Shown one piece after another: positions 12,005 to 64,000 of a stretch of DNA of 64,000 bases. The notes under the pieces were generated by a model. It was given only the letters and a program-made list of their open reading frames with translations, was not told the origin of the DNA and did no database searches. Position numbers and translations under genes: made by a program. Source of the DNA: Escherichia coli (lineage in GTDB: Bacteria > Pseudomonadota > Gammaproteobacteria > Enterobacterales > Enterobacteriaceae); the NCBI RefSeq assembly GCF_041886205.1, contig NZ_CP169029.1; one strand, written 5' to 3'. How positions within the stretch are numbered: position 1 is the stretch's first letter; every line of letters begins with the position of its first letter.

Positions 12005-12153
12005 GATTACAAGCGCATGTTATTGTTTAACATGCACTTTTTTATTTATCCTTCCAGGCAGTATGCCACCGGGTATGCCATTTGAAATCGGTTTATATGC
12101 CCCACGATCATATCTTATCGGACAATTTCCGATCTTTGAGCATACTGGCAAAG

Positions 12154-12996
12154 CTATACTGCCAGCATGTCAGGATAGTGTTTTGCGATAATATCATTCA
12201 GTCTGTCAACCAGTTCTGGCTTCCTGAACGTGATGTGCGCAGAGCCCTTCTTAAAGTATTTAATAATGAACATCTCATCTTCATAGCATTCTTTTCCCTG
12301 AAGAGACCGGATGTGATCGTCCAGATGAATAGTTATGTTTTCCCTGTTGTCGGGGATCGGTTTGCCGCTGAACAGATGCAGCATTCTTTCTAGGTCGGCA
12401 AGTCTATCTGCCTGTTGCCCGGTGATAAGATGCAATCCCCACCGGTCCCACCTCACCAGATTGTTGACGATAATTTTATTGCCAAATTTACAGGGGCAAT
12501 TGGTTTTGTAATTCCAGCTCAACCCTCTGAAGAGGTTGATCACTCCTCGCTCAAACACTTCATCCTTATTCTGGTGTAGCTGCTCAAACGTACTCAGAAT
12601 ATTCTCTTCACTGATTTCCGGAAAATTATCGTACTCCAGTGACCGGTACCATGTATCACGGGCCTGTGCATCCATTAAGGAAAGCATCCCGGAGCATTGC
12701 ATCAGGTCACGCCAGATTTCGCGATCGAGATTGCGGGTGATAGCTTTCATTGCTGTATCAGGTTTATCCATGAGCCAGCAGCCGCAGCGAAAATCCTGTT
12801 TCATGGCCCAGTCCAGTGCGGTTTTACCGCCAATACTTTCTGTCATTGCTGATATTTCAGTCAGTTGCCGGATAAGTGTGTCGATTTGCAGCAGTGTAGT
12901 CTTTCGCACAGCCAGAATGTGGCGGATACTGGTTGAGCAGATAACGTCCGTATGCCCGTTGACCACTTCCGGACGGGCGATTGTGATGCCTGACAT
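12154..12996 (-). CDS. DUF4942-like protein of CP4-type prophage remnant
   Basis: 280-aa ORF directly downstream of the cbtA-like toxin and YeeW-like gene, the usual position of this family; family assignment from memory, not searched. Confidence 0.55.
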   Translation of the reverse strand: MSGITIARPEVVNGHTDVICSTSIRHILAVRKTTLLQIDTLIRQLTEISAMTESIGGKTALDWAMKQDFRCGCWLMDKPDTAMKAITRNLDREIWRDLMQCSGMLSLMDAQARDTWYRSLEYDNFPEISEENILSTFEQLHQNKDEVFERGVINLFRGLSWNYKTNCPCKFGNKIIVNNLVRWDRWGLHLITGQQADRLADLERMLHLFSGKPIPDNRENITIHLDDHIRSLQGKECYEDEMFIIKYFKKGSAHITFRKPELVDRLNDIIAKHYPDMLAV

Positions 12997-13309
12997 AATC
13001 GGTTTTCCTTTCTGTTTATAAATGAAAACGCCAGCCGTATTCAGGCTGGCGTCGGGGGAATGAAGTGTGGTGAGAAAGATAATGAGTGAAACTCACCGGT
13101 TCAGGTGCTGAAACTGCAGATGGCGCAGAGTTCGGACATCCTGTCGCGCCTGTTCGATACAGGGCAACAGTGCTGCCGAATCCGTTTTATCCTCATCGTT
13201 GTCAAAGATAATTTCCGATTCGCAGTCAATATTGTCCTGCAGCCACGCAATCAGAATATCCAGCGCCGTTTCTGTGGTTAATAATTTCATCCAGTGTCTT
13301 TTGTCCTGA

Positions 13310-13798
13310 TTACCAGTCGAAAGTGGGGAACCCCGGCAGACATTCTGCGCTGGCGTCCAGATGAATGAGACTGACGCCATAACGCCGGGTGAGTGTGACA
13401 ACCAGACGACGGAACGTTTTTGACAGGCCCAGGCGCTTAAGCCGCAGAACCGGGTATGACCACGCATCGGTACGTAACAGATAGCCGCTACCTGTGAAAT
13501 GAATCCATTCTGATTCACCAACGTCACTGGTCTGGTGTGACAGCGAGTACAACCAGGCGTTGTCCGTTTCCGTGATATGTGCGGTACTGCAGCGTATGCC
13601 GGCAAGGGTTGCAAATGGCGGAGGTGTGCAGGTTGACTGTTGGTCGGATTCCTCCACCACACGGAGTGAATAACCGTTTTCAGCGACGTTATTAATCAGT
13701 TCAGTGAGATTAACACCATCGACGTCAACGACAATGCGCCCCATGTTCAGTGCCTGCACGTTAACGCTGTCAGCTTCCAGCGTCAGGGCCAGTTTCAT
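13310..13798 (-). CDS. YeeW-like protein
   Basis: 162-aa ORF starting [36 protein letters not shown], overlaps cbtA stop by 4 bp. Confidence 0.5.
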
Positions 13799-14172
13799 CG
13801 TTTCGCCTCCTGATACTTACCCAGGGTAATGTTATTTACCGTTCGGTAATTGTCGCGGGTCATCAGGCCAGTCGCCCGGCGAGCCCGGAGGATATCGATG
13901 CTGTTTATTAACTGAGAGCGGGTACAGGCACTGAATTCCGGCTGGTCGGTACGCACCAGCGCGTATTTTTCCACGAGAAAATTCACCGCATCACACAGTG
14001 AAATGCCTGCCTCAATATGCTGCTCAATCACACGTTCATCGGCAAACGGTGTGTCATTCAGTGTAAGGCCGTAATGCTGGCCCAGTAGTCGGGAGAGCAG
14101 AGTCTGCCAGATGGTGACGGGAGACGGGCAGCTCGATGCCTCCCGTACGTGTGTATCGGGTAATGTTTTCAT
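13795..14172 (-). CDS. cbtA: Type IV toxin CbtA/YeeV family (cytoskeleton-inhibiting toxin)
   Basis: 125-aa ORF ...[54 protein letters not shown]... matches YeeV/YkfI/YpjF family. Confidence 0.85.
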
Positions 14173-14261
14173 ACTGAAGGTTTTCCTGATATGCAGAGAT
14201 GAAAAATGGAAAAGTGGCGTGGTGAAAGCACCAGGCCGGAGCAGAAGGTTATTCCGGTGGT

Positions 14262-14630
14262 TTACTTTTTCGTTTCGGGCGTCGGATAAACAGCCAGATA
14301 AACGTAACCACCGCTACCGAGAGTGTCAGCTTTGCAGGTCAGACCTTTTGCATACAGCGTGACGGTATGCTGATGGCGGGGATTCAGTTCACCGCTGGTG
14401 AGCATGAGTTCCAGTTGTTTCATCAGCAGCGGAAAGGCCTGGTCCAGGTGGTACGCATCTGCATCGCTGAACAGGCCTCTGATACCGGCGCGGTCGGCAA
14501 GGTAATGCAGGCGGTTACCCTCCTGCACCAGACGTGCCCCGAAACAGGGCGTCACGGTGCAGGGCAGCCCCCACCAGAGGCGGTCGTGATTGTCGTCGGG
14601 AAGTATTGTCCCGGGGAGTGTGTCTGACAC
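14262..14630 (-). CDS. cbeA: Type IV antitoxin CbeA/YeeU family
   Basis: 122-aa [55 protein letters not shown]... matches YeeU/YafW/YfjZ family. Confidence 0.85.
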
Positions 14631-62414: not shown

Positions 62415-62445
62415 TATTATGTCTCTCTGTGTAGGGTTGTTGTGT

Positions 62446-63432
62446 TTAGAGGACGATCTCACGCTGGCAACGCAGTGATTCCAGCGCTTTATCCGCGAGG
62501 TACAGCGCACGTTCACCATCATCGCCGCTGCAATCAGGCACCGCTTCGCCGCGCAGAACCGCAACAAAGTGCTCCCATTCCGCTGCGTAAGCGGATTTGT
62601 AGCGTTGCAGGAAGAAGTGTTCCGGCAGCGCGCTGGTGCAACCCTGTTTGCCGTAGTGCTGCACCTGGTTTTCAAGGATATTGCCCGCGCACAGCAGCCC
62701 TTCGGAACCGTGTAGCTCCAGGCGCTGGTCGTAGCCGTATGAAGAGCGGCGACTGTTGACGATGGTCGCCATCGCGCCGGAGGCATATTTCAGAACGATA
62801 AATGCGGTGTCGATATCTCCCGCTTCGCCAATCGCCGGATCCACCAGATTGCTGCCCTGGGCATACACCGACACCGGCTCTTCACCCATGATGAAGCGTG
62901 CCATGTCAAAGTCGTGGATGGTCATATCACGGAACATGCCGCCGGAAACACGCACGTACACCGCAGGCGGTGGAGACGGATCGCGGGAGATGATCAGCAG
63001 TGATTCCGGTTTGCCGATACGCCCGGCCTGAGTGTCGGTTTTCACGCGACGGAACTGTGGGTCAAAGCGGCGGTTAAAACCGATAAACAGCGGTACGTCA
63101 TACTCTTTGACCACTTTCAGGCAGTCGCGTACGCGGGCAAGATCAAGGTGTACCGGTTTTTCACAGAAAATGGCTTTGCCGTAACGGGCGGCCATTTCAA
63201 TCAGATCCGCGTGGGTGTCGGTCGCGGAGGCGATCAATACGGCATGAACGTTCGGGTCGGTCATCGCCTCATCCAGGCTCTGCTGGCGCGCCTGATACTG
63301 TGTCGCGAGACGCGTGGCGAACTCCTGATTCGGGTCTACCACAGACCAGAGCGTGGTCGCACTATGGCTGGCGATGTTAGCTGCATGTACCTGGCCAATT
63401 CGGCCAGCGCCCAGTAAAGCAATGTTAAACAT
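62446..63432 (-). CDS. iolG: myo-Inositol 2-dehydrogenase
   Basis: 328 aa; Rossmann motif IALLGAGRIGQVH; Gfo/Idh/MocA fold. Confidence 0.8.
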   Translation of the reverse strand: MFNIALLGAGRIGQVHAANIASHSATTLWSVVDPNQEFATRLATQYQARQQSLDEAMTDPNVHAVLIASATDTHADLIEMAARYGKAIFCEKPVHLDLARVRDCLKVVKEYDVPLFIGFNRRFDPQFRRVKTDTQAGRIGKPESLLIISRDPSPPPAVYVRVSGGMFRDMTIHDFDMARFIMGEEPVSVYAQGSNLVDPAIGEAGDIDTAFIVLKYASGAMATIVNSRRSSYGYDQRLELHGSEGLLCAGNILENQVQHYGKQGCTSALPEHFFLQRYKSAYAAEWEHFVAVLRGEAVPDCSGDDGERALYLADKALESLRCQREIVL

Positions 63433-63621
63433 AACGGCTCCCGGTGTTGATGAATGCGGTGAACTAACGACACTACAAATAAAACATTTATTTCATTTTT
63501 ATAAATAGTGAAAATTATATTTTGAGTGACAGTTAACACTTTTGAGATGTATTAGATAAATTTTGTTATCAATCTCACAACGCCGAGGAAGATATGTCCC
63601 TCCATTACAAGGGGGGGAGGG

Positions 63622-63665
63622 AATAAAAACTGTACCATCCCCTCTCCCGTTGGGAGAGGGGATGG
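63622..63665 (-). terminator. Rho-independent terminator after iolD
   Basis: 14-bp stem CCATCCCCTCTCCC / GGGAGAGGGGATGG (63635-63665) with T-run on the minus strand. Confidence 0.55.
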
Positions 63666-63716
63666 GTGAGAGGAAAAAAGAAAAATGAAATGAAAATTTC
63701 GTTACGACAGGAAAAC

Positions 63717-64000
63717 TCAATACTGACGAGCTTTTTTCACCTGAGCCTGTGTTTGCTCGGCGGCCTGGCGCACTGCTGGCGACTCTGCCACCTGTGCGTT
63801 GCCGGTTCGCCACCATGACGCGTAATCATGGGTCATGGTTTTTGGTAGCACTTTGATGTCGAGGAGCGTCGGTCCCGGGTGAGCGCGCGAGGCTTCCAGC
63901 GCCGCCAGCAGGCTTTTCTCATTATGTACCCGCCATGCGCGGCAACCGTAGCTTTCCGCGTTTTGCGCAAAATCGACCTTCACCAACGGCCCGTCAAGCT
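63717..64000 (-). CDS. iolD: TPP-dependent 3D-(3,5/4)-trihydroxycyclohexane-1,2-dione hydrolase, C-terminal part; gene continues beyond window end
   Basis: C-terminal 89 aa; assignment from context upstream of iolG and the rest of the iol cluster. Confidence 0.65.
   Translation of the reverse strand, partial: LDGPLVKVDFAQNAESYGCRAWRVHNEKSLLAALEASRAHPGPTLLDIKVLPKTMTHDYASWWRTGNAQVAESPAVRQAAEQTQAQVKKARQY

Follow-up and report, generated by a model that had tools for sequence, protein, structure and literature searches.

The 52 kb of accessory DNA beside serX in an Escherichia coli genome is very probably the tRNA-proximal part of a serX-family island with its integrase at the far end

How can a large genomic island stand at a tRNA gene and show no integrase there? 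This question was raised by a 64,000-nt stretch of Escherichia coli DNA (RefSeq assembly GCF_041886205.1, contig NZ_CP169029.1; the whole stretch is called the window below), in which positions 12005-64000 lie directly to the right of a tRNA-Ser gene. A first-pass annotation made from the letters alone had described these 52 kb as a mosaic island whose CP4-type module has its distal end, DUF4942, YeeW and cbtA, next to the tRNA, and it implied that the missing integrase was an anomaly. Our analysis indicated that 12005-64000 is very probably the tRNA-proximal ~52 kb of a ~66-kb island of the serX/serW family, in which the integrase sits at the tRNA-distal end.

The tRNA-Ser(GGA) gene was recognized as serX because it is flanked by the ghrA-ycdX-ycdY-ycdZ-csg backbone, and the 12 kb of core DNA to the left of it read mdoC-clsC-ymdB-ymdA-csgCAB-csgDEFG-ycdZ-ycdY-ycdX-ghrA. 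We compared the window with 5426 complete E. coli genomes and counted a segment as shared at a coverage of at least 80%. Backbone 1-12100 was common to 5359 genomes, and sharing then fell to 226 genomes for window 11900-36800 and to merely 5 for 39001-64000. Against genomes in which serX is empty, homology stopped at ~12004-12008, and the GC content of the island ranged from 0.33 to 0.61 in 2-kb windows. The region right of serX is accessory, as the first-pass annotation had proposed for a large mosaic island at this tRNA. The nearest complete-genome match was strain wlxctx60 for the backbone and strain ZYB62 for the island. In wlxctx60, which is 100% identical over the 12 kb, serX is unoccupied, and the genome is without ycdU, dgcT and pgaABCD.

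No integrase or recombinase was found in the window by tblastn with the integrase of serX islands, K-12 IntF and the resolvase YagL (none at E<0.1), and in ZYB62 and AH65, whose corresponding DNA is 97-100% identical, annotation by the Prokaryotic Genome Annotation Pipeline (PGAP) gave only transposases and no tyrosine or serine recombinase. The earlier statement that the 52 kb hold no integrase was thus confirmed. The ~1 kb that follow the 3' end of the tRNA contain no integrase, so the locus does not have the layout of the P4/CP4-57 type.

The missing gene was found at the other end of the island in the nearest relative. ZYB62 (NZ_CP074366.1) is a cattle isolate, and over ~24.1-64.0 kb it differed from the window by ~11 bases and one extra ISEc23, with zero differences over 25-43 kb and 47-64 kb, whereas the two backbones are ~1-1.7% diverged per kb. 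The yee/Ag43 segment (12-24 kb) was the only part of the island strongly diverged from ZYB62. The ZYB62 island begins with tRNA-Ser and then DUF4942, as in the window, and past the position of the window edge it goes on with iolD, mmsA, an RpiR regulator gene, a Gp2-like gene, a YfjI/DUF3987 gene and an AlpA-like helix-turn-helix (HTH) gene, followed by a remnant of the insertion sequence (IS) IS1, a hypothetical gene and a 401-aa tyrosine recombinase gene on the minus strand. This recombinase is the single one of the tyrosine type in the whole ZYB62 island. The sequence CCCCCTCACCGCCA stands 160 bp past the integrase; behind it come the native terminator of serX and then ycdU. An integrase with an att (attachment site) repeat just beyond the window, which the first-pass annotation had named as evidence that would refute its picture, is therefore present in the nearest relative. 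When the ZYB62 positions are carried over to the numbering of the window, the integrase would fall at ~76,448-77,650 and the repeat at ~77,811-77,824, which gives an island of ~65.8 kb. Both ends of such an element are common: the integrase/repeat junction was found in 1259 and the tRNA-Ser/DUF4942 junction in 1346 of the 5426 genomes, about a quarter each. In the ZYB62 island, both within and past the span of the window, the PGAP annotation showed no relaxase gene, no oriT and no type IV secretion genes, and no dedicated search for oriT was made.

The ends of the element are marked by a 14-bp att core, CCCCCTCACCGCCA, which is formed by the last 14 nt of serX. The 52 kb contained no exact internal copy, and two matches with two mismatches were at chance level. 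In relatives, a second copy adjoins the integrase (18679-18692 of L003, 7364-7377 of L006 and 3529-3542 of L011, where L numbers denote fetched loci); ZYB62, O157 DEC4E and CFT073 have it beside the integrase. In ZYB62, the core occurs at the two island ends only and nowhere in the interior. It is the same 14-mer as the published direct repeat of the O-islands OI-43/48 and of SRL PAI, the pathogenicity island with the Shigella resistance locus (PMC3064760).

Two further motifs were found close to the core in the window. RGTATGCCAYY stands there as a direct doublet and has no other match in the 64 kb, and among the fetched loci this motif occurred only at attL (L002, L004) and at attR between integrase and core (L003, L006), on the same strand. 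The second motif, TATCGGACAA, was matched once in the window (0.11 matches would be expected by chance), and among the loci it was found only in the att flanks of L002, L003, L004 and L006; it is possibly a site for an accessory protein or one specific to the integrase. An island at ileX carries a different doublet, two copies of GGGTCAGGTAA, at the same offset. Both motifs of the window recur on one and the same strand at the att flanks only, and they speak for a functional attL here. Downstream of the empty serX of wlxctx60 (L005 44741-45565), an RtT-like unit of 181 bp is repeated 4.6 times in tandem; it matches Rfam RF00391 at 38 bits, short of the gathering score of 45, and directly after these repeats come a DUF2726 gene and phoH. 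The last ~20 nt of serX and its terminator recur in each unit, so the wlxctx60 site has five 14-bp att cores.

The serX/serW family comprises the SRL PAI, OI-43/OI-48/SpLE1 and PAI-CFT073-serX, and the arrangement just described was recognized in several islands that are already known. PAI-CFT073-serX, which spans 1127702-1241149 (113 kb; PMC7545054), occupies the same site as the window island and bears the 14-bp core at each of its ends. Its integrase end reads dgcT, 14-mer, integrase; the integrase has the same accession as that of ZYB62 (WP_000279878.1), and the module of integrase, hypothetical gene, IS1 remnant, HTH gene and YfjI gene is also that of ZYB62. Its tRNA end reads GTPase-Ag43-YeeR-IrmA-DUF932-antirestriction-RadC-...-CbeA-CbtA-DUF5983-DUF957-DUF4942-tRNA-Ser-ghrA, in the same orientation as in the window. 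But the cargo differs, with F1C/S fimbriae, salmochelin and microcin genes in CFT073 (PMC7545054) and a type I restriction-modification (R-M)/DarTG block, orphan genes of contact-dependent inhibition (CDI), a uhpC-like gene and the iol genes in the window.

The same integrase-end module adjoins ycdU in O157:H7 DEC4E, and the O157 integrase DNA was 99.3% identical to that of ZYB62. As in this family, OI-48 and OI-43 of EDL933 and SpLE1 of Sakai are inserted at serX/serW with the integrase at the ycdU side and an intact tRNA at the ycdW side. For OI-48, ycdU has been placed upstream and serX/ycdW (ghrA) downstream; the work on OI-43 and OI-48 found precise excision to be measurable, and their 14-bp direct repeats are perfect, read TGGCGGTGAGGGGG, which is CCCCCTCACCGCCA in reverse complement, and are identical to those of the SRL PAI, and their P4-family integrase is 99% identical to the one of the SRL PAI (PMC3064760). 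The cargo of these tellurite-resistance and adherence islands is given as ter, ure and iha, and iol is not mentioned in the passages of that source which deal with them (PMC3064760). The SRL PAI is excised precisely in dependence on its integrase and has Ag43-like and CP4-like open reading frames (ORFs) (PMC7545054, PMC8854971); its own cargo, unlike that of the window, is the multi-resistance SRL together with fec and D-aspartate genes, and the likeness is known from secondary citations within these sources.

In K-12, CP4-6 at thrW has the order of intact tRNA, ykfI/yafW to the ykfA GTPase, cargo, intF and a 3' fragment of thrW. It shares with the window the series toxin/antitoxin-DUF987-RadC-antirestriction-DUF932-GTPase on the opposite strand, followed by IS-rich metabolic cargo, but its tRNA, its integrase (IntF), its att core (~47+ bp) and its cargo are different. 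Thus the tRNA-distal integrase that had appeared anomalous is found in the same layout in CFT073, O157, ZYB62 and CP4-6. In elements of the CP4-57/P4 type (ssrA-intA, leuX-intB), the integrase adjoins the tRNA or transfer-messenger RNA (tmRNA) gene and the toxin end is distal; their content consists of a P4-family integrase, an AlpA-like HTH, YfjI, a GTPase and a CbtA-type toxin module. This is the order that the first-pass annotation expected, and it is not the order of the window.

Parts of the island were also found at another site. In TW14588 (L008 2804-31180), a block from DUF4942 through Ag43, the GTPase, a pair of genes of unknown function and R-M/DarTG to the M48 gene stands at ileX, after rpoD-mug, with DUF4942 again adjoining the tRNA. 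Since the doublet there is the different one described above, one cargo block is used by islands of different integration specificity. The attL junction closest to that of the window (99.8%) was observed in the serX island of E. coli 1303 (L013), whose cargo includes tet(B), strAB, sul2, a long array of CDI orphans and a module of the dynamin/patatin type. The 1303 island shows the cargo variability of the serX family.

If the window belongs to this family, a P4-family tyrosine recombinase would insert and excise the island within the last 14 bp of serX, and the circular form would have its attP between the promoter-proximal side of the integrase and the DUF4942 end. The att core is opposite in orientation to that of the P4/CP4-57 type, so island DNA would restore the tRNA at the DUF4942 end, and 14 bp would be left beside the integrase. 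In this genome, the integrase would be expected ~12.4-13.7 kb beyond the window end. Because there are no internal att cores, successive site-specific insertions are unlikely, and the activity of IS elements, together with recombination of one island with another, is the most likely origin of the mosaic. The joints of the modules coincide with IS elements, and the divergence of 12-24 kb from ZYB62 fits an exchange with paralogous CP4-like modules.

Some points weigh against this reading. That the distal end is retained in this genome is inferred from ZYB62; wlxctx60, the closest backbone, is without ycdU, dgcT and pgaABCD, so the far flank here may differ and the integrase end could be deleted; attL junctions are ~6% commoner than integrase/attR junctions (1346 vs 1259), which makes it probable that there are remnants without an integrase; and the RGTATGCCAYY doublet would represent putative arm-type integrase binding sites, judged by position and exclusivity only. 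The loss of genes beside serX in the wlxctx60 lineage and the slightly lower number of integrase/attR junctions would both fit an island that was fixed here after its integrase/attR end had been deleted or replaced, and that can no longer excise. Such remnants would also be in keeping with the documented O157 deletions that run from OI-48 into the ycdU side (PMC3064760) and with the many IS elements of the island. We nevertheless consider a remnant unlikely, because the window is near-identical to the last base to ZYB62, where the 401-aa integrase is intact and has its repeat, and because genomes with the integrase/attR junction are ~94% as many as those with attL.

It is still less probable, and in our view only a slight chance, that independent elements were stacked in tandem at serX and that the window shows members without integrases. 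Composition and content are strongly mosaic, the modules are found separately elsewhere (CP4/R-M/DarTG at ileX, iol with afa-8 in avian pathogenic E. coli (APEC) E123) and the empty wlxctx60 site has five tandem att cores, all of which would suit stacking, but the 14-bp core is absent inside the 52 kb and inside the ZYB62 island, this island has a single tyrosine recombinase, and its joints are at IS elements and not at att sites. Finally, the CP4-like module or the whole island could have been flipped relative to an order of tRNA, integrase and distal cbtA, for example between IS copies. CP4-57/P4-type elements do have the integrase beside the tRNA or tmRNA gene, and inverted IS66 copies are many in the window, but the same orientation was found at three tRNA sites, in CFT073, ZYB62, AH65, 1303, TW14588 (ileX) and K-12 CP4-6, the tRNA-Ser/DUF4942 junction is present in 1346 genomes, and the arm repeats of attL are on the same strand as those of attR, as they would be in an uninverted element, so an inversion is hardly credible. 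The serX-family island with a distal integrase remained by far the best explanation, and the features on which it was based are listed together with the cargo in Table 1.

Table 1 Features of the window at serX and in the island, with the evidence for each call
Feature	Position	Strand	Evidence or remark
serX, tRNA-Ser(GGA)	11917-12004	+	ARAGORN and Rfam; intact; only tRNA found (ARAGORN); left boundary of island, attL
14-bp att core CCCCCTCACCGCCA	11991-12004	+	Last 14 nt of serX; only exact copy in window
RGTATGCCAYY, two direct copies	12060-12082	+	Only two matches in 64 kb
TATCGGACAA motif	12116-12125	+	Single window match
DUF4942	12154-12996	-	Pfam; first gene after tRNA
DUF957	~13093-13290	-	CP4-like module
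DUF5983/YeeW-like	13310-13798	-	Pfam
CbtA toxin	13795-14172	-	Pfam
CbeA antitoxin	14262-14630	-	Pfam
DUF987	14710-14931	-	CP4-like module
RadC/JAB	14994-15485	-	NCBIfam RadC
Antirestriction protein	15486-15971	-	Pfam
DUF932	16026-16844	-	Pfam
DUF905	16944-17177	-	CP4-like module
IrmA	17256-17711	-	CP4-like module
YeeR-like gene	17787-20309	-	838 aa in relatives; split into 262 aa + 573 aa
Ag43/Cah family autotransporter adhesin	20424-23345	-	NCBIfam NF033177, 1973 bits vs cut-off 1200
YeeP/YkfA-like GTPase	23643-24554	-	NCBIfam GTPase domains; PGAP 'GTPase family protein' in relatives
Unknown gene, 172 aa	24871-25389	+	Low-GC pair
Unknown gene, 459 aa	25526-26905	-	Low-GC pair
HsdM	28134-30572	+	PADLOC MTase_I
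HsdS	30572-31921	+	PADLOC Specificity_I
DarT	31934-32590	+	PADLOC E=1.9e-74; Pfam DarT on identical proteins
DarG, macrodomain	~32587-33654	+	PADLOC E=1.5e-127; Pfam Macro on identical proteins
HsdR	33673-36768	+	PADLOC REase_I
M48/YgjP-like peptidase	36768-37484	+	Precomputed Pfam on identical proteins
Immunity-like ORF	38274-38609	-	39% identical to ORF in E. coli 1303 orphan array
VENN-containing cdiA-CT fragment	38610-~39038	-	Motif GIVVENNYLS at ~39000-39011
Imm63 immunity	39048-39491	-	Pfam E=1e-27
TNT-domain toxin fragment	39466-39663	-	PGAP on 100%-identical ZYB62 DNA
ISEc11 (IS110 family), split by intact ISCro1 (IS66 family)	39903-44613	-	PGAP, 99.98% identical ZYB62 DNA
ISCro1 tnpC	40095-41666	-	
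ISCro1 tnpB	41686-42033	-	
ISCro1 tnpA	42033-42710	-	
UhpC-like sugar-phosphate sensor/transporter, major facilitator superfamily	45326-46648	-	NCBIfam NF008661, 658 bits vs cut-off 564
IS3	46957-48119	+	PGAP on identical ZYB62 DNA
Degenerate IS66	48249-50659	-	PGAP on identical ZYB62 DNA
rve-domain transposase fragment	50815-51036		PGAP on identical ZYB62 DNA
MarR-family regulator pseudogene	51289-51789	+	Internal stop; Pfam MarR, PGAP
MarR and hypothetical genes (141-155 aa), leading edge of iol cassette	51289-52886	+	PGAP
iolB	54054-54875	-	NCBIfam equivalog above cut-off
iolE	54885-55811	-	NCBIfam equivalog above cut-off
iolC/iolJ fusion	55787-57691	-	NCBIfam equivalog above cut-off
Gfo/Idh/MocA dehydrogenase	57704-58849	-	iol cassette
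ATP-binding cassette (ABC) permease	58846-59874	-	iol cassette
ABC ATPase	59886-61433	-	iol cassette
Binding protein	61485-62414	-	iol cassette
iolG	62446-63432	-	NCBIfam equivalog above cut-off
iolD, 3' end	63717 onward	-	Cut by window edge

The genes next to the tRNA form the CP4-like module, in which the calls over 12154-17711 were made from Pfam, NCBIfam, the ORF list and the PGAP annotation of 96-98% identical AH65 DNA. That the DUF4942/YeeW/cbtA end adjoins the tRNA, as stated before, was supported by Pfam and NCBIfam, and the order and strand of the module are the same as in CFT073, AH65, ZYB62 and 1303. The YeeR-like gene is split by an in-frame stop at 19521-19523 (minus strand), both ORFs being in the same frame, and the Pfam domain YeeR_C lies within the 573-aa part. 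By exact-protein look-up, identical copies of this fragment were found elsewhere only in CP4-44 loci, where it is the product of an IS3 insertion in other genomes. This identity suggests, as far as sequences can tell, an exchange between paralogous CP4-like modules. Upstream of the Ag43 gene, in an intergenic region of the yeeP-flu type, Rfam gave a match to IS102 RNA at gathering level (23289-23525, minus strand). The GTPase that follows also had weak PADLOC matches to LeoBC/LeoA.

Between the GTPase and the R-M/DarTG block stands a low-GC pair of genes (24871-26905), which had no match in Pfam, PADLOC, PHROG, NCBIfam or the PDB sequences. The pair is kept at this position in ZYB62, TW14588 and many E. 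coli. The family of the 459-aa protein comprised 26 homologue clusters, all unnamed and from Enterobacterales only, and the AlphaFold model of the protein was of low confidence (predicted local distance difference test, pLDDT, 60.7) and gave no fold match. A homologue in Serratia adjoins a protein kinase gene and an integrase gene.

The type I R-M operon encloses DarT-DarG between hsdS and hsdR, with PADLOC E-values from 1e-74 to 0, and its HsdS allele is widespread (4489 blocks). Many genomes that share this HsdS allele have a full cdiA of 3021 aa and cdiI right after the M48 gene; the full-length protein has TPS, Fil_haemagg and PT-VENN domains (L021-L030 17384-21350). According to the PGAP annotation of the ZYB62 DNA, the window holds no full cdiA or cdiB. 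Because the complete cdiA-cdiI occurs at this position elsewhere, what is left in the window is the 3' remainder of a CDI locus that was cut short by IS insertions, the IS110/IS66 nest, and 38274-39663, which also gave a weak YezG-like match, consists of orphan CDI toxin and immunity remnants.

The remnants are followed by the nest of ISEc11 and ISCro1, after which come IS66 tnpA/tnpB remnants (within 39903-44613), and by the UhpC-like gene, which sits in an islet of 34% GC. ZYB62 has a 2.5-kb insertion of ISEc23 (IS66 family) at window 38160-38167, where the window is without it, and the alignments overlap there by 8 bp, which looks like the target-site duplication of ISEc23. In the backbone, a match to the small RNA ES056 at gathering level was found with Rfam between csgB and csgD (6225-6316, plus strand).

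The right part of the window, 54054-64000, is by its annotation a predicted myo-inositol catabolic cluster with a transporter, and ZYB62, 100% identical over iol, completes it with iolD, mmsA and the RpiR regulator gene. The MarR gene in front of it has an internal stop in the window and in ZYB62 and is intact in APEC E123 (L007 16388-16888), where these MarR and hypothetical genes also precede iol, within an afa-8 island. The cassette was present in 53 of the 5426 genomes (~1%), in 46 of them on the chromosome at an identity of at least 99% and in 7 on plasmids at 89%. It is therefore not core, in line with the first-pass annotation, whose list of adhesin, toxin-antitoxin, antirestriction, R-M plus DarTG, orphan CDI, IS and iol genes was recovered in full. 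Among the iol-positive hosts listed, many were cattle, buffalo or poultry, which is an impression with no background rate. A literature search on iol in E. coli gave nothing specific.

For serX islands, earlier work has already described the layout, the att site, the family of the integrase and how they excise, and what is new is the combination of cargo. In serX and CP4-6-type elements the integrase is far from the intact tRNA, so a window that starts at the tRNA looks integrase-less; this correction is a useful outcome for future scans and has little weight for discovery. A rather doubtful possibility is that the serX island may have begun only recently to spread the iol cassette among livestock-associated E. 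coli, since ~40 kb are near-identical in this genome and the cattle isolate ZYB62 despite a backbone divergence of 1-1.7%, iol is found in ~1% of the genomes, and many of the hosts are cattle or poultry; separately, and just as tentatively, the pair at 24871-26905 may be an undescribed defence system. The rare cargo mosaic of R-M/DarTG, CDI orphans and iol is of modest value for the understanding of niche adaptation and of the shuffling of cassettes between islands.

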